Source of the DNA: a virus
Taxonomy: Duplodnaviria > Caudoviricetes
Virus record (IMG/VR): IMGVR_UViG_3300005937_000008
Coordinates: 1-64,000 of that record
Length of the DNA: 64,000 bases
Strand: one strand, 5' to 3'
Below the pieces are notes generated by a model that worked only from the letters and a program-made list of their open reading frames with translations, was not told the origin of the DNA and searched no databases. This document shows, in pieces, positions 20,469 to 64,000 of the stretch; within the stretch, counting starts at the first letter, position 1; each line of letters begins with the position of its first letter. A program made the position numbers and the translations under genes.

Positions 20469-21046
20469 AGTGATCTCGCTTCCTGTTCGGCGAGCCAGCG
20501 CCGGACGGTCTGGTTGTGGCGGGCGTCCGCGAGCGCGTTGTGCTCGCCGCTCGCCTGCTTGGGCAGGGCGTCCCAGCCGAGGCCGAGGCGGCGGGCTTCC
20601 TGCTGGATGTCGCTGGTGTACATGGGCACCCCGTCCGGGAGGTCGATCATGCGGCCCCACAGTTGGGCGAGGCACACATGGTCGTAGGCCCCGTAGGAAG
20701 CCCAGAGTTCGACGTCCTGCCCGGCGTCGCGGATGAAGTCCCGCACCTCGCGGGCGATCCGCTCCACGGGCTTCACCGCCGGATCGAGGTAGTTGAACAG
20801 CCACCGCTTCGGCATGTGCAGGATCCAGTCCCCGTGCGGCTTCGGCAGGTTGGGGACCACGTGCTCCATCAACCACTTGTGCCTGCGTACCCGCCGCCGG
20901 AACCGCCAGCCCTTCCAGCCGCGCGCGGCCAGCAGGGCGTTGACGGCGTAGTAGGAGCGGCCGTCGTCCGCGACCATGCCGATCGAGATCGGCTCGATGC
21001 GCACCCCGTCCTCGAGGAATTCCCAGTCGTAGAAGACGTCGGTCAT
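20465..21046 (-). CDS. DEDDh 3'-5' exoribonuclease-like protein (RNase AS/DUF5051 type)
   Basis: FYDWEFLEDG..ISIG..YAV; YGAYDHV; EHNALADARH. Confidence 0.75.
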   Translation of the reverse strand: MTDVFYDWEFLEDGVRIEPISIGMVADDGRSYYAVNALLAARGWKGWRFRRRVRRHKWLMEHVVPNLPKPHGDWILHMPKRWLFNYLDPAVKPVERIAREVRDFIRDAGQDVELWASYGAYDHVCLAQLWGRMIDLPDGVPMYTSDIQQEARRLGLGWDALPKQASGEHNALADARHNQTVRRWLAEQEARSL

Positions 21047-21969: not shown

Positions 21970-22042
21970 GGATGCTCCAGGCGTGACGAAGGCCCCGGCC
22001 ATCGGCGCGGGGCGTGCAGGGTGGGGCGGGCGCGGGTGGGTC

Positions 22043-29900: not shown

Positions 29901-31581
29901 GCCCACCAACGGCCTTGCCGACGTCCACGAAGTCGATGCCGCCCACGACCTTCGCCAGCTTCTTCGTCAGATCCGCAGCATGCTCGCCGACCCAGCCGAT
30001 CATCCTCCCGAGGCCCTTGCCCAGCGAGCTTCCGAGCTTGCCCCAGTCGATGTCCTCGATGCCGCCCGAGACGGCGTTGCGGATGGTCTCGCCGAACGCT
30101 TTCGCCTGAGACTTCGGCGCCTTCGGTGTCTTGGGCTTGGCCAGCATCCCGGGCTGCGACGGCAGTTTGAACAGCTGCTGCTGCTTCGGGGCCAGGCTGA
30201 CCGGGCCCTGCGGCTTCGCCAGCAGCCTCGGCGCCGCAGGCTGGGTCAGCATCACGGACGGCAGCTGGTTCTTGCTCGTCTTCTTGCCGCCGGAGTCGGT
30301 CAGGCCGTCCAGGAAGTCGGAGAACAGGCCACCTGCCGACTTGCCGCCAGTCAGGCCGGAGAAGAAGTCACCGACGACCTTCTTGGCATCCGAGAATCCC
30401 TTTTTGATTGTGTCGACGGGGATGAGCTTGCCCATGGCGGTGCCGAACTTCGCGGCCGCGGGCATGGCCGTGTTGGCGAGGAAGTGCACGAAGTCGGTGA
30501 GCGGCGGCAGCACCTTGGTGCCGACGCGGACGCCCATGACCTCCAAGTTGGAGACGAGCAGGTGCCATTGGGCCTCGGCGGTCTTGCGCTGCTGTTTGAC
30601 CGCGTCGTCGAACCGGCCGGTGGACTTGTTGACCTGGTCCTGCTTCTTCTTCAGCACATCCAGGTTGTTGATCATCAGGAGGATGCCGGACGACGACCGT
30701 CCGCCGCCGAACGCCCTGGACAACAGCTGCGACTCCTCGGCGGCCGACAATCCGCTCGCGTCAAGGTGGTCCTTCAGCATCTGGATGGCGCCGATCAAGC
30801 CGTCCTTGCCGCGCATCGCCTTGGCCAGGTCCAGGCCGGTGAGATGAATCTTCTTCAACTGCTTCTCGGCCGCCCCGCTGGGTGCGCCGAGCAGGCTGAA
30901 GGACATCCGCAGCCGGGTCGCTGCGGACGCGGAGTCGATGCCTTCGTCCGTCATCAGGGCGAGCGCGGCGCCAACCTGCTTCATCGACAGGCCGAACTCC
31001 TTCGCGGACGGCAGGATGCCCGTGCCGATCGCCGCGTTGAAGTCCGCCATTTTCATGTTGCCCGCGCCGATGATGGCGTTGACGGTGGAGACCGCCTCAT
31101 GGAATGAGGTGGCACCGCGGATGCCGGTGCGCCAGGCGCCGGCCAAGGCGTTGGTGGTCTCCTCCAGGTCGGCGTGGCCAACCGCCGCCAGGTCAGACGC
31201 CTCCTTCAACGCCTTCATCGCGGACACGTTGTCCATGCCCACGCTCTTGAGGTGGTACAGGGACTCGGCGAGCTTCTGCGGGCCCTGCTGGGTCGTCGTG
31301 CCCAGCTTCAGCACCTGCTCCGACAGGATTTTGACGTCCTTCGTGGTGGCGCCCGCCTGCGTCGAGATCCGCGTCATCTCCGACTGGAACTCGACAGCGC
31401 TCTTGGTTCCCTTGGCGAGCCCTGCCGCGAGCCCCACAGCCAGCGCTGCGCCTGCCACCTTTGCGGTGCGGGCGAGCTTTCCCAGGGCGGTGTCTGTGCC
31501 GCCTGCCGCGCGGCCGACCGTGTGGAAGGTGCGGCTGGCGGAGTCGTGGGCGACGAGCCGGTAGATGATGCCGGTGGACAT
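26908..31581 (-). CDS. Tape measure protein with lytic transglycosylase-like domain (1557 aa)
   Basis: Phage TMP domain near N-terminus; four ~45-aa repeats (~28860-29400); LWNGESGWN..SSGAYGIPQALPASKM SLT-like motif. Confidence 0.92.
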   Translation of the reverse strand: MSTGIIYRLVAHDSASRTFHTVGRAAGGTDTALGKLARTAKVAGAALAVGLAAGLAKGTKSAVEFQSEMTRISTQAGATTKDVKILSEQVLKLGTTTQQGPQKLAESLYHLKSVGMDNVSAMKALKEASDLAAVGHADLEETTNALAGAWRTGIRGATSFHEAVSTVNAIIGAGNMKMADFNAAIGTGILPSAKEFGLSMKQVGAALALMTDEGIDSASAATRLRMSFSLLGAPSGAAEKQLKKIHLTGLDLAKAMRGKDGLIGAIQMLKDHLDASGLSAAEESQLLSRAFGGGRSSSGILLMINNLDVLKKKQDQVNKSTGRFDDAVKQQRKTAEAQWHLLVSNLEVMGVRVGTKVLPPLTDFVHFLANTAMPAAAKFGTAMGKLIPVDTIKKGFSDAKKVVGDFFSGLTGGKSAGGLFSDFLDGLTDSGGKKTSKNQLPSVMLTQPAAPRLLAKPQGPVSLAPKQQQLFKLPSQPGMLAKPKTPKAPKSQAKAFGETIRNAVSGGIEDIDWGKLGSSLGKGLGRMIGWVGEHAADLTKKLAKVVGGIDFVDVGKAVGGQAIPFAIGFITDLFKPLFTVSFWKKHWLDTILAVLSVIPIGRIAGVLGKLVEHIPFLKILEPLFKNISKLGGFIERGLGKFVIKPLGRFGKSFFEGLIGGFTRVFPGLTGKLGEFIGKLALGIVGYAGRFAAFGERLVGGLGSGILKTGGQIGEWIGRVIGWILKPFAKAGSWLLRKGADFVVGLGRGIARGAKGLGSWVWRTAGRPAVDAFKTAGIWLISKGRSFVSGLKNGIVAVAKGIGGWAKRTIIDPAVSVFGRAGTWLVGKGKSFVSGMKNGVVSAAKGIGGWTKNRIINPAVGVFRTAGSWLKSKGGAFVSGMKNGIVGAVKGIGSWIKKNLVDPVISAVKRFFGIRSPSRVFMSIGGHLVSGLMKGMAKTSGKAIAKKVFGSLPKALAALVKKGLVSIASLPGKALKALGGLGGDVLGLLGLGGSGGGSSANQKIGQTLALTRGWAGPQWAALKNLWNGESGWNERALNKSSGAYGIPQALPASKMASAGSDWKTNASTQIKWGLSYIASRYGNPVSAYSAWLSRSPHWYAQGTGGAAKGLAWVGEKGPELVNFKGGEDVLSHPQSMMFAKANGIKLPGYASGTIMNAADRYRKAQDRVEDAKDKLAAAKKRHKGIKAAEKELQAAETQLKAAKISLHNAQRSAKVSISNTIQTGLLKKLETGTSSAIASAIKSVATKLLNAGYNKTAASVQKKGAKLESLADKRASVQKKIAEANQYASDQAGNIRDFLSISGTSATSVGDLISQAGAQQKTASGFVQLSKSLKARGASKELLQQLSDAGPGSQLATILSQKNVTTQDIDKLNKLMASGGKLATSFGKDMADMMYDSGKHAGEGFLAGLKAQEKDLQKQINSLAKSLVKEIKKALKIKSPSGVFRDEVGKQVVLGMMHGIDMHSHLVGGAAQRLADTATGVSMRRRYVPTAASGRSAARQDEQLWERLAEAIEANGQDVHIHFNDDRLRDLIEITVKPKINASARDAAHRAKVGRRNG

Positions 31582-31608
31582 GGCGCCTCCCCTCAATGTG
31601 CGGGCGGG

Positions 31609-38928: not shown

Positions 38929-40323
38929 CTAGAAGGTCGGTGCCACGAGGCCGGTCCCGGTCACCTCGACGACGCTCGCCGGATAGCGGGCCGCCGTGAA
39001 GGCCAGGTAGCCATACACCTGCAGGCGGACCGTCAGCGTGCCCGAGCCGACGTCCGGTAGCACCCTGGAACGGAGCCCCGATTCGTACAGCAGGATGTCC
39101 GAGGCGCGCAGAACGTGGACGACGTCCTCGTTCGTGCCCGCACCCAGCGCGGTCGGCATCGACGGATCCGTGACGACCGGCAGCCCGTGCATCTGACCGA
39201 CGATCTGCTGCGAAGCCACTGAGCCGAGCGTGGCGATCGCGTTCTGCGGGTTCCCGGCCTCCGGAACGACCAGAGGACGCCCGTTGGAGTCCGCCGCCGC
39301 CAGCAGATACGCCCACCGGCGCGGGTGCATCACGATCACGGTCGGCGCCATGAAGCGCAGGGTGTGCACCCGCTGCACCGCATCCGCGATCTTGCTGTAC
39401 AGCTTCGCCACCGTCGGCGTCGCATCCGTGTACGTGATCGTCGTGATACCCGACGTGCCACGAACGCCCGTCACCTGGCCGGACGAACCCGAGCCAGAGA
39501 TGACCTGAAGGTCCGTCTTCGTCGCATGGTCCGCCACCAGGTCACGGAAGATGACCTCGTCGAACGACACCGGCGACTGATCCAGGAGCTGGATGGCCAC
39601 GTCCTGCTGGCCGGCGATCGTGCGCACCGGAGCGTTGATGAACGTGTCCGTCAGGTCCGTCTCCTGCACCGCCGCGTTGTCCGCGGTCTGCACCGCGGTG
39701 GCAGTGCCGGTGGCGACCTTCGGGATGTTGATCGAGTCGGTGCCCGGCGGCAGCGGCTGCTGGTTGACGACGTTCGCGTAGGCGCGGCCCGCGCGGGCCA
39801 GGTCCACATACTGGCTCATCAGCCACAGCGGCGGAACGAAGTAGCCGCCGTTGCCGTCGGTGCGGTTGAGGTCGCGGTACTCCTGGCCGGTCGCCACATC
39901 CTGGGCGTGCCGCTGCAGCCGCTCGCGGGCCCCGCCGTCCGCATCCATGTTGAGCTGGACGCGGGCCAGGTCCTGCAGGTAGGAGCGGCCGTTGCCGCGC
40001 TCGTAAGTGCGGGCCTCGGTGACGGTCTCGACGCGGGCGCGGGCCCGCTTGACCGCGGCAGCACCCTCGGTGACGGTGCGGGACCGCTCCGCCTCGTCGG
40101 AGAGTTCGCTGATGCGCTCGTCGAGGGCGCGCAGCTCCTCGTCCTTGGCCTTCACCTGTGCCGTGAACTCGCGGAACTCGGCGTCCTCCTCGGGAAGGAG
40201 GTCCTCGCGGGCCTCCTCCTCGGCGAGATCAGTGATGGCCTTGCGCTTGGCGAGGATCTCCTCGCGTTCACGCGCAGTCTGCTCGCGCCTGGCGACCAGC
40301 CGCTTGAAACGCTCGTCAGCCAT
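38929..40323 (-). CDS. Major capsid protein, HK97 fold with delta domain (464 aa)
   Basis: Coiled-coil N-terminus; DGNGGYFVPPLW..INIPK..VRTIAG pattern; position. Confidence 0.92.
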   Translation of the reverse strand: MADERFKRLVARREQTAREREEILAKRKAITDLAEEEAREDLLPEEDAEFREFTAQVKAKDEELRALDERISELSDEAERSRTVTEGAAAVKRARARVETVTEARTYERGNGRSYLQDLARVQLNMDADGGARERLQRHAQDVATGQEYRDLNRTDGNGGYFVPPLWLMSQYVDLARAGRAYANVVNQQPLPPGTDSINIPKVATGTATAVQTADNAAVQETDLTDTFINAPVRTIAGQQDVAIQLLDQSPVSFDEVIFRDLVADHATKTDLQVISGSGSSGQVTGVRGTSGITTITYTDATPTVAKLYSKIADAVQRVHTLRFMAPTVIVMHPRRWAYLLAAADSNGRPLVVPEAGNPQNAIATLGSVASQQIVGQMHGLPVVTDPSMPTALGAGTNEDVVHVLRASDILLYESGLRSRVLPDVGSGTLTVRLQVYGYLAFTAARYPASVVEVTGTGLVAPTF

Positions 40324-40465: not shown

Positions 40466-41515
40466 TCAGCCGACGTCTTCGAGATGGCGTCGCAGATGGC
40501 GCTCGATGGCCGCCTTCTGGTCGGCATCCATGTCAGCCTGAGGCAGCAGCGACAACGCGTGCCGGACAGCAGGCAGGTTCGCCGGGGCGCCGATGCGCGG
40601 CTCGTGGTGTGCGAACCGGTACGACTCGGGGGCCTCTGGATCGCCGCCGGGGTCGACCCAGGCATGCATGTAGCGCAGAACAGCCTGATTGCCAGCCGCG
40701 CCGGCTGCTGCTCCGCGGCGGTCGAACCCCGGCTCAGTGGAAACGTCCGTCCGGTGCGCCGGGATGTGCGGCGAGACCTGAACGGGTACGTCGCCGTCCG
40801 CGATGGCGCGGGCCTCGGCAAGCGACAGCCGGCCGGGCGCCTTGCGCTCCGGCTTCATCTGCCGGTGCAGGGCAAGGACGTTGTCGCGGGCCCGCGTCAG
40901 CCGGCCCAAGTCGACGCCGTCGCCTGACCGCAGCTCCGCCATGGCGGCTTCTGGGTCGAGCTTGGCGAGCACCTCAAGCGCGTCGGCCGCCGAATTGAGC
41001 TGCGCCGAAGTCGCCGGGTTCGCGCCGAAGTTCACGACCGATACGTCGCCCTTGTGAAGGGACACCTCGGTCAGGGTGCGCTCGGTGTCGTCCTCCGACC
41101 AGGCATCGGCCTTCACGCGGAATGCGAACGACATTTCGTCCATGTCGCCGCGTTCCATCTTCGTTTCCAGACGCTGCACGTCCGGGTCGCGCCGGTCCAG
41201 GCTCGCCTCCACCAGCAAGCCCTTGGAGTCCGTCGACAGCTGCAGCGTCCCCGACTTGGTGCGGGCCAGCGGCATGCCCTCGTGGTTGATGAGCAGATGC
41301 AAGTCGGGCTTCGCCGCCAGCGTCACGTCGAACGCGCCCGGGTCGACACGCTCCGTCCACCCGTAGGGTGGGCCGCCGAGCACGTCGTAGCCATTCCCGA
41401 AGACGCTCGCATACCCGGTCAGGGTCAGCCCGTCGCCCTTGGCACGGAGTTCGAAGCCGGCTGCGGCGATCGCGCGCCGCTCCGGAGCATCACGCAGCTG
41501 ATGCCGGTCAACCAT
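40466..41515 (-). CDS. HK97-family prohead protease with C-terminal extension (349 aa)
   Basis: LTGYASVF..ERVDPGAF..LLINHEG..LART..DEMSFAF..EVSL..DVSVVNFGANP. Confidence 0.9.
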   Translation of the reverse strand: MVDRHQLRDAPERRAIAAAGFELRAKGDGLTLTGYASVFGNGYDVLGGPPYGWTERVDPGAFDVTLAAKPDLHLLINHEGMPLARTKSGTLQLSTDSKGLLVEASLDRRDPDVQRLETKMERGDMDEMSFAFRVKADAWSEDDTERTLTEVSLHKGDVSVVNFGANPATSAQLNSAADALEVLAKLDPEAAMAELRSGDGVDLGRLTRARDNVLALHRQMKPERKAPGRLSLAEARAIADGDVPVQVSPHIPAHRTDVSTEPGFDRRGAAAGAAGNQAVLRYMHAWVDPGGDPEAPESYRFAHHEPRIGAPANLPAVRHALSLLPQADMDADQKAAIERHLRRHLEDVG

Positions 41516-42755
41516 CGGTGCCTTCCTTTCGGATGAGGCGCAACGGCCCCGGTTCGTCGCTCCGGATCGTTGGAGGTGAAATGACCGCGCCCGACGCGAT
41601 CGGCAGCGGCGTGAAGTCCTGGCCCGCCCCGTTCGGCAGCGGAGGCTCGTCCTCAAGCGCCCGGAGGCCGTCGATGTTGTCCCAGCCGATCAGGCGCTTC
41701 TTCTCGTGCACCTCGAAGCGGGTCAGCAGGTCCGCCCTGATGAGCACGTCCGGGTCGAACTTGACGTACTGGCCTCGCGGCAGCAGCGCCGACAGGTGCG
41801 ACTCCAGCAGGGCCAGCCACGGCAGCAGCGAGAACTGCACCAGCTCGATCTGCCGCTGCTCTGGGCTGCTGTACGACATCGACCCGCCGGTCTCGCCGCC
41901 GATCATCTCCGGCGGGATTCCATAGATGGAGGCGATCGTCGTCGCGGTCAGCCGCATCGTCTGCACAAACTGCGCCTCGTTCGGGCTGACCGTGACCGGC
42001 TCGTAATCCCAGTCCTTGCCGTACACGATCGGCTCGTGCGAGCGGATCGCCTGCACCAGTCGCCGCTTGATGACGTTCGCCTGCGTCTGGTCGACGACCT
42101 GCTGCGTGTTCTTGAAGCGCCCGGGGGGCACGCCACCGCTGCGATACCAGTCATCGGAAAACTGCTGCGCCGCAAGCCCCGTCGACACCGTCACCGCATA
42201 CGCGCCGATCGGCGACAGACCCCACACGCGGCCCGGCAACTGGAACCACGGGATGTGCACGACGTCCTCGGATGGCAGCCGCTCCCCCATGTAGGAGAAC
42301 TTCGGGTTGGTGAACGACCCTGGCTCGCCCATCGACGCCAGCCGGTCCTCGCACAGCACGAATGCCGGATCCAGCCACTCGACCTCGACCGGGTACTCCA
42401 GATAGTCCCGCGCCGTCACCACACCAACCGCGTTTCCGCGGTACGCGAGCGATGTCACTGCACGGAACACCCAGTCGTGCAGCGTCCCCTGTGCGGACGG
42501 CTGAGTGAACAGCGACGGCAGCGGCAACTCCTGCTTCGAGTCGCCCATCTGCCGGTACACGCACAACGGCATCCCGGAAATCGTTGCCGCCAACAGTCGC
42601 CCCGCAGCAAGCACCGGGCCTAGCCGCAGAGCACCGTCCTCATTCAGCGCCGCCGGCGACGCAAGCGGATCCGACGGCCACGACACCGAAGACGAATCCA
42701 GACTCCGCCGCTCGTCACCGCCACGCCTCAGCAACCCGCGAAGGGGATTGCGCAC
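41508..42755 (-). CDS. Portal protein, HK97 family (415 aa)
   Basis: LAYRGNA..GLSPI..GGVPPG..IASIYGIPPEMIG. Confidence 0.92.
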   Translation of the reverse strand: MRNPLRGLLRRGGDERRSLDSSSVSWPSDPLASPAALNEDGALRLGPVLAAGRLLAATISGMPLCVYRQMGDSKQELPLPSLFTQPSAQGTLHDWVFRAVTSLAYRGNAVGVVTARDYLEYPVEVEWLDPAFVLCEDRLASMGEPGSFTNPKFSYMGERLPSEDVVHIPWFQLPGRVWGLSPIGAYAVTVSTGLAAQQFSDDWYRSGGVPPGRFKNTQQVVDQTQANVIKRRLVQAIRSHEPIVYGKDWDYEPVTVSPNEAQFVQTMRLTATTIASIYGIPPEMIGGETGGSMSYSSPEQRQIELVQFSLLPWLALLESHLSALLPRGQYVKFDPDVLIRADLLTRFEVHEKKRLIGWDNIDGLRALEDEPPLPNGAGQDFTPLPIASGAVISPPTIRSDEPGPLRLIRKEGTDG

Positions 42756-42770
42756 GACGCACCCCCTCCG

Positions 42771-44318
42771 TCAGAACACCGACTCCAGAACGTCGTACTG
42801 GGCTTGTTCGAGCAGATGCGAGCGGGTGACGTAGGACCAGCGGGCCAGCGTCATCGCCACCAGCGGGCTGATGTCGCCCTCCACGCCCTTCACCGTCCAG
42901 GCGATCGTCTCGCCCGTCTGCCGGGTCTTCGCCGAAGCGACCGCCACATCCAGATGCCGGTTCGGCACGACGCGGAAGTTCTCTTCGCGGACCGCCTCCA
43001 GCACCTGGCCAGCCGCCGCCGCCATATCGACCGCGTTCGTCACCGCCAGATCACCCGGCTCCGGCGCCTCGGAATCCTCCGGCCGCTGGAAGCCCGCCTT
43101 GTCCAGCGCGGTCTCGAGGAACGCGAACGTCCCCCGGCCCATGCTGACGGCCACCGGATCCAGCGCATCCCGCAGTTCCATCAGCCGCGGGATCAGCCAC
43201 TTCGTGCCCGGCCGGTAGTCCGCCAGCTGCGTGTGCCCCAGCCCGTCTGCGCGCAGCCCGTACACGCACACCGCGGCATAGTCCCGCAGCGGGCTGATGT
43301 CGACACCGATCGCCACACCTGCCTCGCGGTCCCGCTCCGACGACGCGTCCGCCAGCCGCACCCACGCCCCAGGGTCGATGACCGCATTGCCTTGTGTGAT
43401 CTTCGGCCAGATACACAGCCGCTCCCGCGCAAAACCGGCGTTGCCCATCGAGCGGCGCTCCCGAAGGATCGTCTCCTCCGTCAGCCGCATCCCCAATGCG
43501 GGATTCGACGCCGCCCACAGCCGCCGGTCGTCCAGATCGATGTCATCCAGGTGGTCGAGATCGCCCGCAACCCCCCAGTCCCGCCAGCCGAGACTGTCAT
43601 CGCCGCCCGCATCAGCGCGCCGCTTCAGGTTGAACATGACCTCGCCGGACTCGCCATTCAGCGGCGGCGACGACGTGTAGATGATCTGGGCGTTCGGTCG
43701 GGCCGCCATCGCCGGCATCAACGCGTCCTGCTGCTCCGCCGTGAACGCGAACGACTCGTCAATGATGACCAGATCACCCGAGAAACCACGGCCCGAACCC
43801 TTCGACCGGGCCACGAACTTGATGCGGGCCTCAGTGTCGAGCCTCTCGAAGCCTTCCTCGCCGTTCGTATTGATGAACTTGACGAGGACGCCATCGATAT
43901 CCCACAGGTTCTCGTTGTTCGGATTCACCTGCTTGCCCAGCCGCCGAAGCAGCGTCCGGCAGCGGCGAAAGGCCTCCATCGACGTCTTGTACTCGTGCGC
44001 CGACCACATGATGAGCGACTCATCCAGCAGCAGAAACCCGGCTAGAGCGCGAATCTCCAGAATCGAGCCCTTGCCGTTCTGGCGGGCCACGATCTCGCCG
44101 TACTCGTAACACGCCCACTTGCCGTCATCCCGGCACGCCAACATCAGGTTCACGGCGTCCGCCTGCCACGGATCCGCAACCAGGCCGGCCCGATTCGCCA
44201 GCTCGCACGCCTCCGGCCCCAGCGTGTACTCGTAGGCCGGGGCAAGCTCAACCCTCGGCCTTGCGCCGCCTTTCAGCGATCCGCTTCGAGAGATCCGCGA
44301 CACCCGAACCCCCCGCAA
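42771..44318 (-). CDS. Terminase large subunit (start uncertain)
   Basis: Walker A ARQNGKG; RGFSGDLVIIDE Walker B; YTSS motif III; C-terminal GVDISP..DISPLVA nuclease domain. Confidence 0.93.
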   Translation of the reverse strand: MRGVRVSRISRSGSLKGGARPRVELAPAYEYTLGPEACELANRAGLVADPWQADAVNLMLACRDDGKWACYEYGEIVARQNGKGSILEIRALAGFLLLDESLIMWSAHEYKTSMEAFRRCRTLLRRLGKQVNPNNENLWDIDGVLVKFINTNGEEGFERLDTEARIKFVARSKGSGRGFSGDLVIIDESFAFTAEQQDALMPAMAARPNAQIIYTSSPPLNGESGEVMFNLKRRADAGGDDSLGWRDWGVAGDLDHLDDIDLDDRRLWAASNPALGMRLTEETILRERRSMGNAGFARERLCIWPKITQGNAVIDPGAWVRLADASSERDREAGVAIGVDISPLRDYAAVCVYGLRADGLGHTQLADYRPGTKWLIPRLMELRDALDPVAVSMGRGTFAFLETALDKAGFQRPEDSEAPEPGDLAVTNAVDMAAAAGQVLEAVREENFRVVPNRHLDVAVASAKTRQTGETIAWTVKGVEGDISPLVAMTLARWSYVTRSHLLEQAQYDVLESVF

Positions 44319-44649: not shown

Positions 44650-44790
44650 ATCCCCCAGAAATTAAAGGATCTTGCTCCTGAGATTTCCCTGCGGGGGGAG
44701 ATTTTTTTCAGGGGCGTGTGGGGTCAAAGCGAGAGTGGATCAAAAAACGGACATTCCCACCCATGCGTGCACGTTTATGCAGGTCAGAGG
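44650..44790. other. Candidate cos/packaging initiation region
   Basis: Lower-GC non-coding gap between HNH and small terminase with A/T and G/C runs (minus strand AAAAAAATCTCCCCCCG); HNH-TerS-TerL order is typical of cos phages. Confidence 0.5.
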
Positions 44791-45080
44791 CTTGCAGCCC
44801 TCACCGAGTGCACCGCCCTCGGCTTCTTCCTCGCCCTTGCCTGGTTCGACTTGATGGAGTTGCAGCGGCGGTGGGCAAGCCTGCAGTTCGCCCGGTCGAG
44901 TGGGTCGCCGCCCTCCCACAGCTCGCGCACGTGGTCCACGGTTCGGGCCATCGGATGCGTGCGGCCGTCGAGGCTCTGGTCGACCCATTCGCCGCACCAC
45001 CAGCAGTGCGTCTCCTCGGCGTAGACCTGGGCCTGCACGTTCCACCATGCCGTGCCCGCACGTCCCTTGCTGTAGGCCAC
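44784..45080 (-). CDS. HNH endonuclease (98 aa)
   Basis: CWWCG..TVDHV..ANCRLAHRRCNSIK. Confidence 0.88.
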   Translation of the reverse strand: MAYSKGRAGTAWWNVQAQVYAEETHCWWCGEWVDQSLDGRTHPMARTVDHVRELWEGGDPLDRANCRLAHRRCNSIKSNQARARKKPRAVHSVRAASL

Positions 45081-45099
45081 GGCTACCTCCAGGCCTGAG

Positions 45100-45369
45100 C
45101 TACGCCACGCTCCACTGCCCCTGCTCGCCGAGGTAGAGGCAGCACCCGCACCTACTGCACAGAGCAGTGGGTCGCACATCTCCTAGGCCAGTGGTCTCAA
45201 CAGGGCTGTGCTCTAGGCAGGTCCCTGCCTGCCGGAGCCTGATGACGAGTGCTGCAGCGCTACCTGCAGCAGGCTGGATACCCAGCAGGTCATGCTCCAG
45301 TACGGCGATCCTGAGCGGGTTACTGCGCTCCTGCCGTACTGGCTGCTCCTTGCGCCTGAAGGGCCACAT
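45100..45369 (-). CDS. Hypothetical protein (89 aa)
   Basis: ORF track; C-terminal CSRC. Confidence 0.5.
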   Translation of the reverse strand: MWPFRRKEQPVRQERSNPLRIAVLEHDLLGIQPAAGSAAALVIRLRQAGTCLEHSPVETTGLGDVRPTALCSRCGCCLYLGEQGQWSVA

Positions 45370-48132: not shown

Positions 48133-48320
48133 GGTGGTTTTCCTTCCGGTTAGTGGACTGGTGTGGTTGTGCGGGGTGGTGCGGTCCTGCGTTTGAGGGG
48201 GTCTAGCGGGCCTCTGAGGGCCTGCCTCACCTCGTCACCAAATCGACATTCATGCAGGTCAGTGCAGGTGGGGTACGAATGGTGGGGCGGTCGGTGGAAA
48301 GTCACCGCCCCACCTGCGCC

Positions 48321-50468
48321 TCACCTTGCTTCAGCGGATTCCGTTTCGCGGTTGCCGAGGGCTCGTTGTACGCGCTGGAGGTGCACGACGGGGTAGCCCT
48401 GGTAGACGTTTGTGTCCTCGCCGTGGTCGGTGAGGAGGCGGCGTAGGCGGCTACCGTCCCAGTCGGTGTAGTATGCCGGGTTGAGGTTCTTCAGCCGGTG
48501 CAGGACCTCGGGTGTGCGGACTCGCTCCTGCCCGGACATGACCTGCTCGAGGTCGGCAAGCTCGTCGACGTCTGCGACGGCTTCCAGCTTGTGCAGGGTG
48601 GTGACCTGCCTGCGTAGAGCCTTGGCCCGGTCGGTGATGGCGATGGCTTCGTCGTCGTCGATGAAGTGCGTGCGGACGTTCTCCGACACCTGCCCCTTGG
48701 GCATGTCGATGCCGCTGCCTGCGACGACGAGCTGGCCCTTGTCGATGTCCTGCCGCAGCTTGTGCGGGGCGGCGCCGGCGACCACGGGAGCGTCACCGAG
48801 AGCCATCTTGGCCTGCGACTCGCTGCCTAGGACCAGGGAGGCGCGCAGGTGGTTGCCTTCGCGGGACCGCTTGGGCAGGTTCTGGTCGGTGGGGTCCTGC
48901 GTGCCTTCCCAGATGGTGACGTTGACGGCACGGCCCTGATCGTGGATCTTCTTGACGGCCTGGAAGTACCGTGACGTGGCCTTTTGCCCCCCGTAGGGAG
49001 CCCCGTACTTGACGTTCCCCTTGTCGTCGACGTACTCCTCCCGGGCGCCCGACCCGTAGGCGACCTGGGCTTCGTCGACGATGCAGACCAGCGGATCGAA
49101 CACGGTTCCCGCGGGAGCCAGCAAGCGCCGCTGCATCTCCTCGAAGACGTCCTCGACCATGTGCGTGACGTCCTTGACGTGGTCGTCGGTGGGGCCTTCG
49201 ATGAGGATCGTGGCCAGGCCGAGGAACATTCGCCAGTCGCCGATGCCCTTGAGGTCGCCGATGCGGAACTCGACGGTCGGGTCGAGCGAGAGCCACAGGG
49301 CGAGGGCGCGCAGGGCTGCGGTTTTGCCCTGGTTGGACAGGCCGGTGACCAGGATGTGCTTCTGGTAGAGGCTGACGAGGACGGCATCGCCGCGCAGGCT
49401 GAGGCCCCACGGGGCGCGGCCGCTCTTGTATCTGGCGGTCATCGTGGTGTCGGTGACCAGCGGCGATACAGGCACGGGCTCGTCGAGGGCGCCGGAGTCG
49501 GCGACCCAAAGGCGGACGGTGCGGGGCTGCGGGGCGACGCTGATGTACAGCTCGTGCTCGTGCCGGCCGAGGTTCTCGGCGAGCTTGCGCCGCTTGTTCT
49601 GGATCTCCAGGGTGTCGACGCCGGACGGCAGGTGGACGTCGAGTTCGACGCCGCAGCCTGCGATGGCGATGGGCGACAGCATGGAGGCGCCTGCGTCTTC
49701 CATGTCGATGATGGCCTTGCGCAGGGTGGAAATGCCCAGGTCGCGGAAGGCTTTGACGACGATCGACGGGGTGATGGGCTCGCCGTCGCCGCGCACGCTG
49801 GCGGGGAGCGCCCAGCGCGGGGCGGCCTGGCGTTTGCGGCCGGTGCTCCAGAGTGCGATCAGGCCGAGGGCGGGCCCGAGCATCTTGGCGGCGCCCCATA
49901 CGACGGCGCCGATGAAGAACGCCCAGTCGACCATCTCAAGGAACATGTGGAAGGGAACGAGCACGTCAGCGGCGTTCTCGTTGGCGACGGCGAGGGCGAT
50001 CCCGCCCATGGTGAGCGCGCCGAGGCCGGTGAGGGCGACCGCTCCTGCTGCGCGGGGCGCCTGGCGCATTGCGCCCAGCATGTCCATGCGCCGCTGGTGG
50101 CGGGCCTGCCGGAAGCGGTGGGCGCGCTCTTCCCACTCCTTGGCTTCTTCGGTGTTCCCGACGGCTTCGGCGGCGCGGATGTTGCGGCCGTAGCGGGCGG
50201 TGGTGCGCTCCTCCCAGATGCGCCGCCACGCGATGCGTGCCCCGCCTGCGGTGTAGGCGCCGTGGCGGACGATGATCCGGCATGCGGAGCGGGTGCGTTC
50301 GTCGGTGAGCGCGGCCCGCATCCGTTCGCGTGCACGGCGCCGCTCCGCCTGCTTCTTCGCGACCCGCTCCGGGAGAACCTCGAGGGACGCCTCGGGGGCG
50401 GGCGTCTTGACGAGTTTGAGGGGGCGCTCTTGGCAGTCGTCGAGGGTGCCAGGGATGTCGATAGTCAT
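48321..50468 (-). CDS. TraB-like FtsK/SpoIIIE DNA translocase (715 aa)
   Basis: N-terminal TM segments; Walker A GLSNQGKT; Walker B LVCIVDEAQ; GRA..V...TQDP; C-terminal wHTH-like domain. Confidence 0.85.
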   Translation of the reverse strand: MTIDIPGTLDDCQERPLKLVKTPAPEASLEVLPERVAKKQAERRRARERMRAALTDERTRSACRIIVRHGAYTAGGARIAWRRIWEERTTARYGRNIRAAEAVGNTEEAKEWEERAHRFRQARHQRRMDMLGAMRQAPRAAGAVALTGLGALTMGGIALAVANENAADVLVPFHMFLEMVDWAFFIGAVVWGAAKMLGPALGLIALWSTGRKRQAAPRWALPASVRGDGEPITPSIVVKAFRDLGISTLRKAIIDMEDAGASMLSPIAIAGCGVELDVHLPSGVDTLEIQNKRRKLAENLGRHEHELYISVAPQPRTVRLWVADSGALDEPVPVSPLVTDTTMTARYKSGRAPWGLSLRGDAVLVSLYQKHILVTGLSNQGKTAALRALALWLSLDPTVEFRIGDLKGIGDWRMFLGLATILIEGPTDDHVKDVTHMVEDVFEEMQRRLLAPAGTVFDPLVCIVDEAQVAYGSGAREEYVDDKGNVKYGAPYGGQKATSRYFQAVKKIHDQGRAVNVTIWEGTQDPTDQNLPKRSREGNHLRASLVLGSESQAKMALGDAPVVAGAAPHKLRQDIDKGQLVVAGSGIDMPKGQVSENVRTHFIDDDEAIAITDRAKALRRQVTTLHKLEAVADVDELADLEQVMSGQERVRTPEVLHRLKNLNPAYYTDWDGSRLRRLLTDHGEDTNVYQGYPVVHLQRVQRALGNRETESAEAR

Positions 50469-50471
50469 GGG

Positions 50472-51380
50472 TCAGCTTCCGGTGAGTGCAAGGACGTTGT
50501 CGGAGCCGAGGGCGGCCAGGTCGGGGCGCTCCCGCTCGATCTCGGCGCGCAGCTTCTGGGCGTGCTGGCGGGAGGTGTGCGGGTAGCCGGGCAGGGCAAG
50601 GAGGGCGGCGGTCATCTCGCCCTCGACGGGGCGCCTCTTCTTGCTGTCGTAGAGCGCCTCGATGGCCGCCTTCGCGTCGGCGCGGGAGGCGCTCCGGGGG
50701 CGCTTCGCTGCCGCCTTGCGGGGCGCCTTCTTCGACGCCTTGGGGGCGCTCTGGGGGCGCTCCGGCTTGACGGTTCGGGGCGCCTCGGGGGGCGCTCCGG
50801 GGGCGTCGCTCGGGGCGCTCTGGGGCGTCGTCTCGGGGCGCTCCAGGGCGGGTGCCGGGGGCGCCTCGGGGGCGGCAGTCGGAGCGTCGGCGGGGGCGCT
50901 CTGGAGCGTCTGGTTCGCCTCCACTCGGGGCGCCTCGGGGGCGGCCGGAATGCGGGCGGCGAGAGCGCCGTGCAGCTGCTGCATGAGGGCACCGAACGCA
51001 AGCAGGGCGGCGATCGGCGGGACCGCGGCAACGACGTAGTCCATGGGCTGGGCGTGCGATCCGACACCGGCCACGTTCAGGGCGATGGAGCCGCCGGAGC
51101 CGGCGACGGTGAGGCCGATGGCCCACGGGTCGACGGCCCGGCGCAGGCTCGCCCGCAGGATGAGGACTTCGCCGATGAGGATGAACAGGTCGACGGTTGC
51201 CGGCCACGCCCAGGAGCGGACGGCGGAGTGGCCGAGGCCGTAGCGGGAGGCCACGTCGTGCAGGTGCTCATATGACAGCCAGAAGGCGGCCATGGTGAGG
51301 ATGACGCTGGCGACGGCCGCGATGACGGCGAGCGTCGCGAGGACGTTCGGCTGTTCACGCGGCTCGGTCTGGGTGGTCAC
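50472..51380 (-). CDS. SpdB2-like (DUF2637-type) four-TM spread protein (302 aa)
   Basis: AFWLSYEHLHDVA..WAWPATVDLFI..SIALNVA..VPPIAALLAF; Pro/Ala linker; basic helical C-terminus. Confidence 0.7.
   Translation of the reverse strand: MTTQTEPREQPNVLATLAVIAAVASVILTMAAFWLSYEHLHDVASRYGLGHSAVRSWAWPATVDLFILIGEVLILRASLRRAVDPWAIGLTVAGSGGSIALNVAGVGSHAQPMDYVVAAVPPIAALLAFGALMQQLHGALAARIPAAPEAPRVEANQTLQSAPADAPTAAPEAPPAPALERPETTPQSAPSDAPGAPPEAPRTVKPERPQSAPKASKKAPRKAAAKRPRSASRADAKAAIEALYDSKKRRPVEGEMTAALLALPGYPHTSRQHAQKLRAEIERERPDLAALGSDNVLALTGS
50697..50944 (+). repeat. Strand-polar GGGGCGC(T/C) repeat cluster, clt/TRS candidate
   Basis: 11 exact GGGGCGC at 50697, 50720, 50743, 50754, 50777, 50789, 50812, 50835, 50858, 50893, 50927 in all three reading frames; further copy near 50421. 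Confidence 0.7.
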
Positions 51381-51586
51381 GCGAGCCTCCGGGTGAGGGC
51401 GAGCCACACGGCGGCGGCGAGTCCGATGAAGATCTGGACGGCGGTCTGGGCGAGGAGCAGGGCGGCACCGTGCACGGCGAGGAGTAGGGCTGCCAGGAGC
51501 AGTGAGCCGATCGCTGCGGCCAGGCCGGGGAAGTAGCCGGTGAGGATGAGGAGGGCCGCCAGGAGCGACCAGAGCAGCGCGCGCAT
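51377..51586 (-). CDS. Small hydrophobic Spd-like membrane protein (69 aa)
   Basis: Almost entirely hydrophobic; coupled to SpdB2-like gene. Confidence 0.6.
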   Translation of the reverse strand: MRALLWSLLAALLILTGYFPGLAAAIGSLLLAALLLAVHGAALLLAQTAVQIFIGLAAAVWLALTRRLA

Positions 51587-57465: not shown

Positions 57466-59956
57466 TCGCCGGCCTTCTCGCCGTCGAACCAGCGCCTGTC
57501 GTCGGCGGCACACTCGGCGATCGACGGCCCGTCGTCGCCGGCCGGCTTGTCCACGGCCGCCGGCTCCGCCTGTTCCCCCAGCTGCTCGAGTACTTTCGCG
57601 AGTTCGTCGTCGAGCCCCCGCAGCAGTCGTGCGTCGTGGTCGTCGAGCCGTCCGGCGGTCTGCTCGTGGAGGCTGCGGATGGCGTCGGCGTGGATGCGGG
57701 CGATCGCCGCCAGCGTGCCCGGGTCGGGGGCGTCCGCGCTGGCGGCGGGGTTGTCCGGGGTTCCCAGGGTGTCCCGGTACTGGTCGAATGCGGCCCCGAT
57801 GACGGGCATGATCCGGCTGGCGATGCTGCCGGGCGTCCAGTAGGCGACGGGAAGGGCCTCGAGGGTTGCGACGATCTGCTCGCGCAGGCCGGCCGGGGCC
57901 AGGTGGAAGTGCGGGGCGGATGCCTGATCGGTCACGGCTGCTCCTGGCTGTCGTCGAGGATGTTGAGGATGGCGGCGGCTGCCGGATGCGTTTCGCCGGG
58001 GCGGACGGTGGCCTGCCAGCGGCCGGCGAGGGCACGGAGTTGTCCGGTGGCCGCGGACAGGCGGGTGACCTCGTCGGCGAGGGCGCGCCTGTCTCGGTCG
58101 ACGATGGTGAGGACGGTGTCTGCGTCTGCGCCGTAGACGATCAGGTCGTGGGGGTGGGCGTCGGCCCATCGGCGGCCGGGGTTGCTGTGCTCGTAGAGGG
58201 CGGCGGCGATCTGCTGCCGCAGCGGGTTGTCCGCCGTGCCGCTGCTGGTGGCGGGGTTGTCCGGGGTTGTCCGGGCGGGTGGGTCGGTGGCCTGCCAGCA
58301 GCCGATGGGCGGGTCGGGTGCCCAGTAGCCGGTGAGGTCGTCGGGTTGTACGTCGTCGGGGTCGGTCATCGTCCCTCCTGGTCGGGGCAGTTGATGGTCC
58401 GGCAGCCGTCGTGCAGGTAGCAGCCGTGGACGCAGCGGGGCCGGTTGTAGTCGGGCTCGGCGTCCCGTTGCGGGGCGTGGCGGACGCTGTCGTAGGTCGG
58501 CCGCTTGTGCCAGCCGGCGGGCTCGTCTTGGGTGTCGGGGTCCCAGGTGGCGATGGCGGCTTTCACGGCGGCCGGGTCGCGCGGGTAGCACCAGCCGTAG
58601 TCGTATCCCCACTCGCCGGCCTCCCCGCGAGGGACGGCGATGACCCGGATGTTGAAGCCCTGCCACAGCCACAGGTACCGGTGGGTGTCGTCGGCGGCGA
58701 GCTCCTCGCCCTGCCAGTGCTCGTCGGTGATCGGCTTGGGGTGGTGGGTGACGGTCATGCTGCGGGTCGTCCTTCCCTGGTGGCGGCGTTGATCTGGTCG
58801 CGGATGGCTTCGTAGCCGGCGAGCCGGTTTCGCCAGCTGGTCGGCTCGGGTCCGGTCTTGCCGAAGTGGGCCCGTAGTTCGGCAACGAGGGTGTCGTCGC
58901 CCGGGTTTTCGTCGTCGTGGCCGAGGGCTTCGCACAGGACGTCGCGGAAGCGGTCGGCGGCTCCGGCTGCGGTCTGCTTGGCCTGGCATTGGTCGTCGAG
59001 TTCGCCGTGCAGGGCGTCGATGTGGTCAATGCCTTCGCGCAGCCGTTCGGCTTCGGCGGCGGTGAGTTGTCCGCGGCTGGCCCGGTCGGCGAGGTTGCGG
59101 AGCTGGTCGAGGGTGGGTGGCCTGGTCACAGGATCTCCCCGGTCACGTTGACGGCTTCAACTGCCCTGGTCCGGTTGTCGCGGATCCGCTGCCAGGTGCG
59201 CCGGGGCCGTACCGCCAGCAGCAGGAGGCCTTCGGTGGCGAGGATGGCCTGTCCGATCCACCAGCGTGCGTGCCGCCAGGCCGGATTGTCGGGGGCGACG
59301 ATGAGCCACATCGCCCACTCACAGATCCGGTCGCCGGGGCGGTGCCGGCAGGTGAGGTAGCCGGCGGTGAACGCGACGGCGGCGGTCACGGCGAGGACGG
59401 TCACGGCTGCCTCCCCTGCTGTGCTCGGCCGACGGGTTTCGGTTTCCCGTCGGCGCCGACCAGCCCGTCGGCCATCGCCCGGGTGCGCAGGCTGATCAAC
59501 AGCGCCTGGCGGGTGGTTTCGCCGGTGCGGGTGTAGAGGGCGAGGAGCCGGGCGAACTCGTCGTCGAGCTGCAGGTGGAGTTGGCGGGCGGTCACAGGTA
59601 CTCCTGGTCGGCGATCGGTATGTCTTCGATGTGGGCGCGCTCTACGTCGGTGAGCTGGCCGTGCAGATCCCACGGCTGGAGCGGGGGCATGGTGCCGGGC
59701 ACGGGGTCGTGGTCGCCGCAGGGCTCGGGCTGCATGTCGGCGGTCACGGCTGACCTCCGTTGATCGCGCGGGCGAGTCGGAGCATGCGGCGGTGGCGGCC
59801 GTCGGTCTCCTGGATCGTGGCCTCGCGGTCGAACTCCAGCACGGAGAAGGACTCAAGGACCTTGGCGAGCGGGTCGGCGATATGGGGTGGGACGATCCCG
59901 GCTTGGTGTCGCAGCTTCTGGGCGGCGTTCATGATCTCGTCGGCGGGGTGGGTCAT
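57462..59956 (-). other. Run of coupled middle-region hypothetical ORFs
   Basis: 57462-57935, 57932-58369, 58366-58758, 58755-59129, 59126-59404, 59401-59595 (RHH-like), 59592-59747, 59744-59956; GTGA/ATGA overlaps. Confidence 0.6.
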
Positions 59957-62315: not shown

Positions 62316-63740
62316 TCAGGCGGCAAGCGCCGGCGCGGCTGCGGTGTGGCGGTCGATGGCTTCGCCGGTGATGGCTTCGACGAGCGCGCAGACCAAGATC
62401 TCGGCCATGTTGGGCGGGACGGCGTTGCCGTACTGCTTGACGCGTTCACGCTTGGAGCCGAGGACGATGTACTCGTCGGCGAAGCTCATCGCCCTGCCGA
62501 TCTCGTGGGGCTCCAACATGCGGAACAGCACGTCGTCGATGTCGACGTCGCCCTCGACGACCGCGATCCGCGGATCCGGGGTGACGAGGCCGTGATGGTT
62601 CCCGGACGCCGTGACGGTGGCGAGCGCCTCCGTCACAGGCCGGGCCACCGAGCCGCCGCCGCGGAGTTCAGCGATGAACGGCAGCCACGCGAGGCCGGTT
62701 TCGTTGCGGGCCGTCTGGGTGCGCAGCGGCGCCAGGGCGGTGTTCGCCTCTTTGCCGTCACGGCCTTCGACCGGAACCATCAGCGGCGGTATCCCGAGCC
62801 GGCGGCCGTCGACGGGCCGGGCGAAGCGGGTGATGCCGGCCTGGATGCGGGCGAGGGTCTTCGCCGCGAGCGGCCGGGCCCTGTCGCCGATGCGCTGGCC
62901 GGGCAGCGCCCAGTCGATGCACGTCGCCGCAGGCAGCGTCTCCGGCTCAAGCAGCTTGTAGCGGCAGGCCGAGTTGGGACACCGGTACACGTACTGCTGC
63001 CGGTAACGCCCCATGTCGCGGCCCTGCCTCTTGAACACCTGCATGGCGTCCACGTGGCGGTCGCAGGCCTCGCACCAGGCGCGGGGACGCAGCCACTTGT
63101 TCCAGTCCGGGGTACGGCCGAGCGTGCGGTGCCAGTAGGCCACGAACAGGCGATCCCGGCTCTGCGGCGCCTGGTGCACCGACCGCGGATGCGCGTGCAT
63201 GGCGTTCAGGGCGATGATCCGGGTCTCGTAGCCGAGCTTGCGGATCTCGCCGAGCCAGCGGTCCCACTCGGCCCAGGTGCGGACGTCGACGACGTTCTCG
63301 ACGATCCCCGCCTTCACGAGGCCACCGCGCTCCTGCACGCCGCGCAGGTACAGCGGCACCTCCTCCATCAGCGCCCGCGACTCCTCCTCCGCAGTCGGCT
63401 GCTCGTCCTCGGCCGTCTCCTCGAGGAGGGAGAACAGGTCGTACTGCATGGCCTTGTCGAAGTCCCGCTGCTTGCCCTTCGCCACTGACCAGTTGGTGCA
63501 CTCCGGCGAAGCCCAGAAGATGTCGGTGACGGGCCAGTCCCACACTGGGGCCTGACGGATGTCGCCCTGGTAGTGGTCGGTCTCCGGGAAGTTCGCGGCA
63601 TGCGATTCGATGGCGCGCAGCCAGTGGTTCGCGGCCCGGGTGACGCGGACGCCGGGGACGGCGTGGACGCCCTGGCTGGAGCCGCCTGCACCGCAAAACC
63701 AGTCCATAACGGACAAGGCGTCATTATCGTGGCGGTACAT
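62316..63740 (-). CDS. DNA (cytosine-5) methyltransferase (474 aa)
   Basis: Motif I DWFCGAGG; catalytic ASPECT; ENV motif VI; PQSRDRLF motif VIII; C-terminal QYGNAVPP motif X. Confidence 0.9.
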   Translation of the reverse strand: MYRHDNDALSVMDWFCGAGGSSQGVHAVPGVRVTRAANHWLRAIESHAANFPETDHYQGDIRQAPVWDWPVTDIFWASPECTNWSVAKGKQRDFDKAMQYDLFSLLEETAEDEQPTAEEESRALMEEVPLYLRGVQERGGLVKAGIVENVVDVRTWAEWDRWLGEIRKLGYETRIIALNAMHAHPRSVHQAPQSRDRLFVAYWHRTLGRTPDWNKWLRPRAWCEACDRHVDAMQVFKRQGRDMGRYRQQYVYRCPNSACRYKLLEPETLPAATCIDWALPGQRIGDRARPLAAKTLARIQAGITRFARPVDGRRLGIPPLMVPVEGRDGKEANTALAPLRTQTARNETGLAWLPFIAELRGGGSVARPVTEALATVTASGNHHGLVTPDPRIAVVEGDVDIDDVLFRMLEPHEIGRAMSFADEYIVLGSKRERVKQYGNAVPPNMAEILVCALVEAITGEAIDRHTAAAPALAA

Positions 63741-64000
63741 CACGCGGCACTTCCTTCGCGGTGGGTGGCGGTCAGCCCGGCATGCGCGGCGGCGGTGCGG
63801 TGTTCGGCCGGCAAGTCGGCGTCGCAGTAGAAGCCGATCGTGAGGTGCATGCCGTGGTCCTCGACGACCTTCCACACGGCCGTGCCGGTGCAGGCAGGCC
63901 GGCCGTCTCGCTGACGGTGGAAGTTGGTTGTGCAGTCCGCGTAGTCGGTGAAATCGGGCAGCAGCCAGCCGGCGTCGCGGCGGAAGACCCGGACGATCGG
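63740..64000 (-). CDS. Hypothetical protein, 5' end outside window
   Basis: Open minus frame ..GWLLPDFTDYADC..CTGTAVWKV..FYCDADLP..EGSAA* overlapping methyltransferase start. Confidence 0.5.
   Translation of the reverse strand, partial: PIVRVFRRDAGWLLPDFTDYADCTTNFHRQRDGRPACTGTAVWKVVEDHGMHLTIGFYCDADLPAEHRTAAAHAGLTATHREGSAA

Follow-up and report, generated by a model that had tools for sequence, protein, structure and literature searches.

What reads a short DNA word that recurs eleven times within 237 bp, always on the same strand, inside the coding sequence of a membrane protein? The locus that raises this question lies in a 72,266-bp contig of 68% GC, the first 64 kb of which form the whole stretch of DNA that we analysed (hereafter the window). 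By its gene content the contig is a complete-looking temperate tailed phage of the Streptomyces type. Two DNA methylases, DnaB and the Pol III beta subunit are also encoded on it, and the following genes serve as landmarks:

8206-9498: integrase
21043-22002: amidase
26908-31596: tape-measure protein
38929-40323: capsid
40466-41656: prohead protease
41508-42755: portal
42771-44318: large terminase (packaging genes are on the - strand)
44784-45179: HNH endonuclease
55-57 kb: NUDIX, GIY-YIG and T5orf172 genes
62316-63875: C5-cytosine methylase

The repeats involve two genes that share the - strand with the packaging genes, one for a DUF2637 membrane protein and one for an FtsK/SpoIIIE-like translocase:

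50472-51407, - strand: DUF2637/SpdB2-like membrane-protein gene P0001, 311 aa (PF10935, E=4.4e-12; phrog_733)
50970-51323, - strand: DUF2637 transmembrane part of P0001
50673-50960, - strand: P/A/E/R linker of P0001
50475-50672, - strand: C-terminal tail proper of P0001, aa 246-311
48321-50468, - strand: TraB-like FtsK/SpoIIIE translocase gene P0002, 715 aa, directly downstream of the DUF2637 gene
50523-50943, + strand: phased array of 17 GGGGCG cores (13 extend to GGGGCGC), lattice period 11.5 bp (R=0.96)
50697-50933, + strand: dense core of the array with 11 exact GGGGCGC, seven positions invariant and flanks variable
50421-50429, + strand: outlying GGGGCGCTC copy in the 5' end of traB (codons E-R-P), on the lattice

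P0001 is classed by its PF10935 profile match (46.6 bits against a curated cut-off of 22.8, aa 29-146), and its likeness to SpdB2 of pSVH1 is by description only. Four relatives discussed below (L058, L062, L051 and L067) also match PF10935.

The first-pass annotation of this DNA had reported 11 exact GGGGCGC copies in 237 bp, six of them reading GGGGCGCTC, with GGGGCGT and GGGGCGG variants and a further copy near 50421 in the 5' end of the translocase gene, all on one strand and spread over all three codon phases, and had put the chance expectation at about 0.15 copies. A recount confirmed every one of these statements. The exact copies start on the + strand at 50697, 50720, 50743, 50754, 50777, 50789, 50812, 50835, 50858, 50893 and 50927, and one-base variants are interleaved with them (GGGGCGT at 50800 and 50822; GGGGCGG at 50869 and 50938); further copies of the word lie at 50421, inside traB, and at 50523 and 50628. 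The - strand of the array holds no copy. In its longer form the word is GGGGCGC(T/C)(C/T) on the + strand, which is (G/A)(A/G)GCGCCCC on the coding - strand, and GGGGCGCTC occurs nine times on the + strand of the whole contig and not at all on the - strand. Conservation is confined to the core: its seven positions are invariant among the 11 copies, and the flanks are 45-80% conserved. In a de novo scan of the contig, no other 7-, 8- or 9-mer was as clustered as this word.

Neither base composition nor the encoded peptide accounts for this density. Composition predicts 0.152 GGGGCGC per 237 nt, and outside the array the word occurs at 0.066 per 237 nt. When the same peptide was re-encoded by synonymous resampling with the codon usage of the contig, the stretch contained 1.45 +/- 1.08 copies (maximum 7 in 20,000 trials); when the linker's own synonymous codons were shuffled, it contained 4.05 +/- 1.46 (maximum 10), and 0 of 20,000 trials reached the observed 11. 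The copies fall 5/3/3 in the three codon phases of the coding strand, where they read as EAP (three times), GAP and KAP in one phase, SAP (three times) in another, and ERP (twice) and KRP in the third. As the first-pass annotation had argued, the repeats are not explained by the peptide and are a strand-polar property of the DNA itself.

The spacing of the copies revealed a property that the earlier annotation lacked. Successive starts are 23, 23, 11, 23, 12, 23, 23, 23, 35 and 34 bp apart, and all 11 copies fit one lattice of 11.5 bp. The same period emerged from larger sets, at 11.55 bp for the 13 GCGCCCC within the final 620 nt of the gene (R=0.98; P<0.002 when compared with randomly placed copies) and at 11.5 bp for the 17 GGGGCG cores. 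The outlying copy in traB keeps the register: from 50421 to the copy at 50927 is 506 bp, or 44.0 x 11.5, with an array-like lattice phase of 0.13. A generic search for phased hexamer arrays across the 72 kb found this one alone. Since 23 leaves a remainder of 2 on division by 3, the codon phases rotate through all three. The period of relaxed B-DNA is 10.5 bp; the longer period of the array implies a slowly spiralling filament, or an untwisting of the DNA on the binding that we predict.

The lattice and the word persist beyond this contig. We compared relatives from genome, metagenome and IMG/VR loci with the window's own locus. In L012, where TraB is 76% identical and the DUF2637 gene is 89% identical at the DNA level, ten GCGCCCC lie on the same lattice; in L011 (TraB 73% identical), seven lie in the 352 nt of upstream sequence present. 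Between the own locus and L012, changes affect 3 of the 77 word positions and 26 of the remaining 218 positions in the linker (Fisher p=0.045), so that in close relatives the word is kept while spacers and peptide drift. Eight more distant loci whose C-terminal tail is homologous (L058, L062, L063, L064, L065, L069, L073 and L078) carry 6-15 GCGCC[A/C]C in the same place, with periods of 11.3-11.65 bp and linker peptides that cannot be aligned to that of the window. The period was 11.3-11.6 bp, with R of 0.92-0.98, in the own locus, L012, L058, L062, L064, L013 and L069.

Where a piece of peptide is shared, its codons follow the local word. The conserved peptide KAPRK is encoded by AAGGCGCCCCGCAAG in the window (AAG GCG CCC CGC AAG) and by AAGGCGCCACGGAAG in L058 (AAG GCG CCA CGG AAG), each fitting the word of its own locus, and L058 uses the rare codon CCA to do so. 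More generally, the linker peptides are the word read in three frames, xAP, SAP and xRP in the window, and xAT, xRH and AP (with CCA) in L058-like loci. Since the peptides match the three-frame readings of the words exactly, the DNA word shapes the protein and not the reverse, and the linker peptide of the window is largely a by-product of the word.

These comparisons bear on the simplest account, that the array has no function at the DNA level and came about as 23- and 69-bp slippage duplications in a low-complexity Pro/Ala linker. Tandem Repeats Finder does report 23-bp periods, 69 bp (23 codons) is in frame, and some DUF2637 linkers are plainly P/A-rich without a lattice, such as that of the plasmid L067, whose tail is related. 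Recent duplication of whole units, however, fits poorly with an invariance limited to the 7-bp core and spacers of 40-80%, and the excess over chance persists against the linker's own codon pool. The word and lattice are kept in relatives whose linker peptides are unalignable, and the synonymous codons of a conserved peptide have been retuned to the local word. Metagenome contigs, which are of low depth, contained one exact match, in the probable source run (a rhizosphere metagenome according to a search of sequencing runs), and a 151-nt piece from soil with five differences, and no indels or length variants of the array were seen in them. We consider slippage alone very improbable.

Relatives also weigh on a second account, in which the array would act through DNA structure or modification, as template-strand G-quadruplexes or as GCGC targets of the phage's C5-cytosine methyltransferase. 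GGGG runs with loops of 6-9 nt do lie between 50777 and 50838, the methylase gene is present at 62316-63875, and GCGC occurs in all of the word families. Yet the GCGCCAC and TGAGCGC arrays of relatives keep the lattice without G runs, and methylation targets need neither polarity nor an 11.5-bp lattice. This account is hardly credible to us.

A protein that binds the word is the alternative, and the pump encoded next to the array is an obvious candidate. Two features of P0002 are relevant:

aa 376 of P0002: Walker A motif, GLSNQGKT
48426-48455: helix 3 of the winged helix, GSRLRRLLTD, in the C-terminus of P0002

P0002 begins 3 nt past the stop codon of the DUF2637 gene. Its score against Pfam FtsK_SpoIIIE (21.8 bits) is below the cut-off of 24; it matches phrog_1358 (FtsK/SpoIIIE-like) at E=1e-15, and its relatives are Streptomyces proteins annotated as ATP-binding or FtsK. 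The best TraB match in plasmid and phage collections, which contained no close relative, was the FtsK/SpoIIIE protein of NZ_CP108827.1, a 13.5-kb AICE-like plasmid with integrase and primase; the two are 54% identical. Among 50,697 deposited phage genomes, none had a TraB homologue at E<=1e-10. The C-terminus of P0002 is modelled as a winged helix of H-b-H-H-b-b topology (pLDDT 84-91 there), and its weak Foldseek rows are almost all winged-helix proteins. The array lies directly upstream of this TraB-like FtsK/SpoIIIE gene with its modelled winged-helix C-terminus, in keeping with the first-pass annotation, which had placed it right next to the translocase gene.

The same annotation went on to propose that the array is clt, the cis-acting transfer locus. 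Its repeats would be recognition sequences for TraB, whose winged helix would bind them so that the neighbouring translocase loads there and pumps DNA. Much about the array suits this idea. Published clt loci are plasmid-specific direct repeats of 7-9 bp bound by the cognate TraB or TraA, and the clusters sometimes overlap coding sequence (PMC4447253, PMC3583192, PMC4170104). Our array is polar and sits beside traB, with one lattice copy within the 5' end of that gene, and the modelled topology of the TraB C-terminus is that of a winged helix. Most close TraB homologues retain helix 3 (DGxRLRRxLTD) together with the type of DUF2637 tail found in the window and GCGCCCC-type linkers, the pairs being presumptive ones on the same contig, and L014, in which helix 3 is different, has no such array. 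Downstream of traB, where we also looked for clt, the interval 48135-48320 holds just a hairpin and a conserved promoter-like box and no repeat cluster.

The wider comparison goes against the translocase as reader. Beside GCGCCMC arrays stand translocases of three families that are mutually unalignable or barely alignable: the window's own type (own locus, L011 and L012); the type of L058, which is 33% identical to it and differs in helix 3; and the type of L062, L064 and L069, which has no BLASTP match to the own type and a different wHTH. All share the word family and the lattice. The expectation that a different wHTH would bring a different word failed in the other direction as well, as L013 pairs an own-type TraB (61% identical over the available N-terminus) with a (T)GAGCGC array that matches its different tail. 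Two TraB homologues whose wHTH is swapped to the L058 kind (P0014 and P0067) pair presumptively with tails of the window's type and AP/RP linkers, so that the L058-type wHTH is found with both an A-type array (in L058) and a C-type linker (P0067/P0127, a presumptive same-contig pair). Finally, ten loci whose TraB is 54-72% identical but which lack the window's tail family (L001, L002, L004-L007, L009, L010, L014 and L015) have no phased array within ~4 kb of traB. The polar short direct repeats beside traB that the clt proposal calls for are present; recognition by the TraB wHTH is not supported by this comparison, in which the same word family stands beside three translocase families and wHTH types, and we regard the array as unlikely to be a TraB-read clt. 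Because TraB helix 3 is conserved alongside the window's type of tail, TraB may still be a reader within its own clade.

In these sequence comparisons the word appears to follow the C-terminal tail of the DUF2637 protein and not the translocase. Among the loci tested for periodicity, those of the window's tail family had a phased array (own locus, L012, L013, L058, L062-L065, L069, L073 and L075), with two exceptions (L076, R 0.63, and L078) in which the lattice is at most weak; L011, with its 352 nt of upstream sequence, was outside this set. Tails of subfamily B (VSR[AP]T[CI]QRVR; L013, L051, L075 and L076) go with (T)GAGCGC arrays and different translocases. Apart from the tail, the array-bearing loci have no protein in common with the window within ~3.5 kb.

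A comparison of such local extent would miss a protein encoded at a distance, and the reader may be a host protein or the product of a more distant gene of the element: a replication initiator that binds iterons, a partition protein, or a repressor of a toxic traB with tre-like operators. Direct spacing of 22-23 bp is typical of plasmid iterons. The conserved part of each unit is nevertheless 7-10 bp and not 17-22, and there is no adjacent initiator gene. Separate 21-bp direct repeats at ~67,300-67,470, ~750 bp from the start of the DnaB gene, are a better origin candidate than the GGGGCGC array. Plasmid repressors of the TraR type do bind repeats that precede traB (PMC4447253), but no promoter is expected before traB here, where just 3 nt separate its start from the preceding stop codon. 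The array-bearing loci have no initiator or regulator gene in common, and we find a distant reader of this kind improbable.

Within the tail, three features point to a possible mode of recognition:

50475-50714, - strand: modelled segment, aa 232-311 (four helices, helix-loop-helix, pLDDT 82)
50529-50570, - strand: putative recognition helix, aa 280-293 of P0001
50562-50564, - strand: His282 of P0001, which co-varies with the sixth base of the word

The tail model places Ser-Arg-Gln-His (SRQH) at the start of helix 3. An exhaustive structural scan with the tail gave, as best matches, mostly winged-helix and HTH DNA binders at middling Z scores of 5-6.3 (below 8); Foldseek of the tail against the PDB gave no significant match, and a sequence-profile search of the PDB with the tail returned nothing meaningful. 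The resemblance of the modelled tail to winged-helix/HTH folds is suggestive.

The residue in the last position of this tetrapeptide goes with the identity of one base. At loci with SRQH tails (own locus, L011, L012 and L069) all of the ~40 GCGCCMC copies are GCGCCCC, beside two unrelated translocase families. GCGCCAC makes up 39 of the 63 copies at loci with SRQF, SRQY or TRQF tails (L058, L062-L065, L073 and L078), whose translocases belong to at least two families. We also scored ~70 tail homologues at the protein level, with the linker peptide as a proxy for the DNA word: ~50 SRQH tails had AP/RP-rich linkers with AT/RH near 0, and ~20 tails of the F/Y kind (SRQF/Y, TRQF and SPAF) had 4-16 AT and as many as 6 RH, which are what GCGCCAC gives on translation. 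Two F-type proteins, P0169 and P0171, depart from this in having AP-rich linkers, and F-type tails go with both GCGCCCC and GCGCCAC. There would be nothing chemically unusual in a histidine that contacts the G of a C:G pair, or in an aromatic residue that contacts the methyl group of thymine in an A:T pair. Array and tail lie in one gene and are inherited together, and part of the co-variation is therefore linkage; the split between H and F/Y may rest on few independent events.

Polarity, helical phasing, selection on the DNA and co-variation with the tail are what the sequences show. We hypothesize that the array is a set of docking sites read by the membrane protein's own HTH-like tail, which would tie the DNA to the membrane, and we think this reading probable, if by no means secure. 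In it, ~17 docking sites with the core GGGGCGC, one per 11.5 bp or a multiple thereof and all in the same orientation, would be written into the coding linker of the DUF2637/SpdB2-like gene. Several tails of this membrane-anchored protein, which is probably oligomeric, would line up head to tail on the array and so hold the element's DNA at the membrane, close to the TraB-like pump that the next gene downstream encodes and to which the DNA could be handed over. The function would be clt-like, except that the membrane protein, rather than the pump's winged helix, would recognise the DNA. For SpdB2 of pSVH1, a membrane protein, published work reports oligomer formation, an interaction with TraB and binding to dsDNA (PMC4170104, PMC4447253), the last described as non-specific (PMC4170104).

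Repeats placed in the linker of a gene whose own product binds them have a precedent in phage lambda. The lambda origin comprises four iterons of ~19 bp inside the linker-coding part of the O gene, bound by the O product for replication. Our proposal likewise has direct repeats in a gene's own linker bound by its own product; unlike at the lambda origin, nothing here indicates a role in replication, and the iteron-like repeats of this contig lie elsewhere, near dnaB. Polar 8-bp words tied to an FtsK-family pump are also known as FtsK KOPS and SpoIIIE SRS, but those are dispersed genome-wide and replichore-skewed, whereas eight of the nine GGGGCGCTC copies in this contig fall within 0.5 kb (50421-50893), and we rejected KOPS-like guidance on this ground. 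We also rejected a cos or pac site, as the array is ~6 kb from the terminase and HNH genes.

The closest parallels come from the conjugative plasmids of Streptomyces. Their clt loci, such as the 8-bp TRS of pSVH1, the nine 9-bp repeats of pJV1 and DC1/DC2 of pWTY27 (PMC4447253, PMC4170104, PMC3583192), are, like the array, short element-specific direct repeats in cis beside an FtsK-like gene, and the pWTY27 clt takes in 16 bp of traA (PMC3583192). The array differs from them in being longer (~17 sites), in its strict 11.5-bp lattice and in lying wholly in a coding linker that it crosses in three frames; its word goes with a membrane-protein tail and not with a translocase or wHTH, and its carrier is a tailed temperate phage. 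SpdB2 of pSVH1 and SpdB of pIJ101 are, like P0001, integral membrane proteins of a transfer or spread module (PMC4170104, PMC4447253), but the DNA binding published for them is non-specific and no cognate site is described. The protein annotated as 'protein spdB' in NZ_CP108827.1 had no Pfam match at E<=0.01 (no DUF2637) and no tblastn match to P0001 at 1e-5. SpdA of pIJ101, a spread-region protein that recognises a short motif, sps, on its own plasmid (PMC4170104), resembles our proposal in that respect; sps is a palindrome in few copies and SpdA is soluble, in contrast to the long polar array and proposed membrane-protein reader here. The Streptomyces plasmid-phage pZL12 likewise joins a phage-type replicon to a plasmid-type tra gene (cited in PMC3583192). 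We found no published description of such arrays, and the papers that we found to name DUF2637 do so just in passing.

If the tail does read the array, recognition of the cis site would belong, at least in this family, to an Spd-like membrane protein and not to the pump, and the Spd proteins, long without a clear function, would gain a definite role that can be tested. The system offers a clean test case, a single-residue swap matched to a single-base swap. It is also an instance of overlapping codes, in which the linker is dictated, in all three frames, by a DNA-binding lattice whose period is not divisible by three, and such arrays are invisible to gene callers. The presence of the module in a temperate tailed phage bears on whether phages also spread as naked DNA.

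Tentatively, and at rather less than even confidence, the observations can be joined into one broader reading. Membrane proteins of Streptomyces phages, phage-plasmids and integrative elements would form a family with self-docking arrays, in which His goes with C:G and Phe or Tyr with A:T at position 6 and the word dictates the linker; array, tether and TraB pump could then allow phage DNA to move between hyphal compartments or cells without a virion. That tail-specific words are a general property of the DUF2637 family is hinted at, not proved, by the DUF2637 genes of 44 IMG/VR loci. Three phage records that are 92-94% complete and have no detected FtsK-like gene (L031, L032 and L045) have enriched heptamers and no lattice, and the heptamer arrays of these other DUF2637 genes are weaker and mostly unphased. 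The genes nonetheless often have an over-represented heptamer specific to the type of tail, AGGACGC with HTH_17-type tails and CGCA[G/T/C][C/T]C with 'LRIGQKRAQRIQ' tails, and the top heptamer reaches counts of 7-13 in DUF2637 genes against 3-7 in 46 control ORFs.

Both a TraB-like pump of the plasmid or AICE type and a DUF2637 membrane protein, their genes together covering 48321–51407, are housed in this complete-looking temperate tailed phage. An integrase gene and lysis genes are present, as are genes for tail, capsid, portal, terminase and HNH endonuclease (window 24000–45200). A search of 50,697 deposited phage genomes found no TraB homologue at E ≤ 1e-10. In two TraB homologues, P0014 and P0067, the C-terminal winged helix is replaced by another type (WTFQDLKEVL.../WKFADLKAAL...), an exchange seen inside a TraB family with 60–77% overall identity. 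This replacement indicates that the DNA-recognition module of the family undergoes domain swapping.

Two features lie 3′ of the translocase gene, traB, in the window:

48282–48313: hairpin with a 10-bp stem (GTGGGGCGGT ... ACCGCCCCAC), a few bases past the traB stop
48240–48262: box TGACCTGCATGAAT, which comes after the hairpin

The box is kept 3′ of traB in L005 and L010, two TraB-family loci that carry no phased array within about 4 kb of the gene. CAGGGAG/CTCCCTG repeats are also present downstream of traB in both.

A 413-codon open frame on the − strand (window 49966–51207, second frame) spans the linker and the junction between the DUF2637 gene and traB; it is probably an artefact of high GC content. 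A 23-bp slip within the main GGGGCGC array would shift reading into this frame.

L065, a relative with a GCGCCMC array, holds a second phased array (L065:4147–4396) in which the complementary word GTGGCG occurs eight times with a period of 11.55. This second array runs on the opposite strand, downstream of the DUF2637 gene by approximately 400 bp, as an inverted partner to the main one.

In the integration/replication region of four AICE-like relatives, 8-bp words (GGTAGCGG, TCCGCCAC, CCGCTACA and TGCGTCAC) are clustered on two strands:

L001:1939–2100: 8-bp word cluster, between an HTH gene and a DUF3631 gene (gene context read at L001 alone)
L003:8872–9064: 8-bp word cluster
L006:9708–9866: 8-bp word cluster
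L010:9557–9704: 8-bp word cluster

These clusters may be origin or regulatory repeats.

Past the window end, the contig contains the following:

65241–66554, − strand: DnaB helicase gene
67300–67470 (L060:7300–7470): 21-bp unit (AGAGTTCAGGGTTTCG...), four to six direct copies plus inverted partial copies

The 21-bp repeats lie in an intergenic gap roughly 750 bp from the start of the helicase gene and mark a likely replication origin. Elsewhere, GGGTTGTCCG occurs three times inside 50 bp (window 58225–58275; starts 58225, 58255 and 58265), and GTTGTCCG is found 10 times on the + strand of the contig and once on the − strand.
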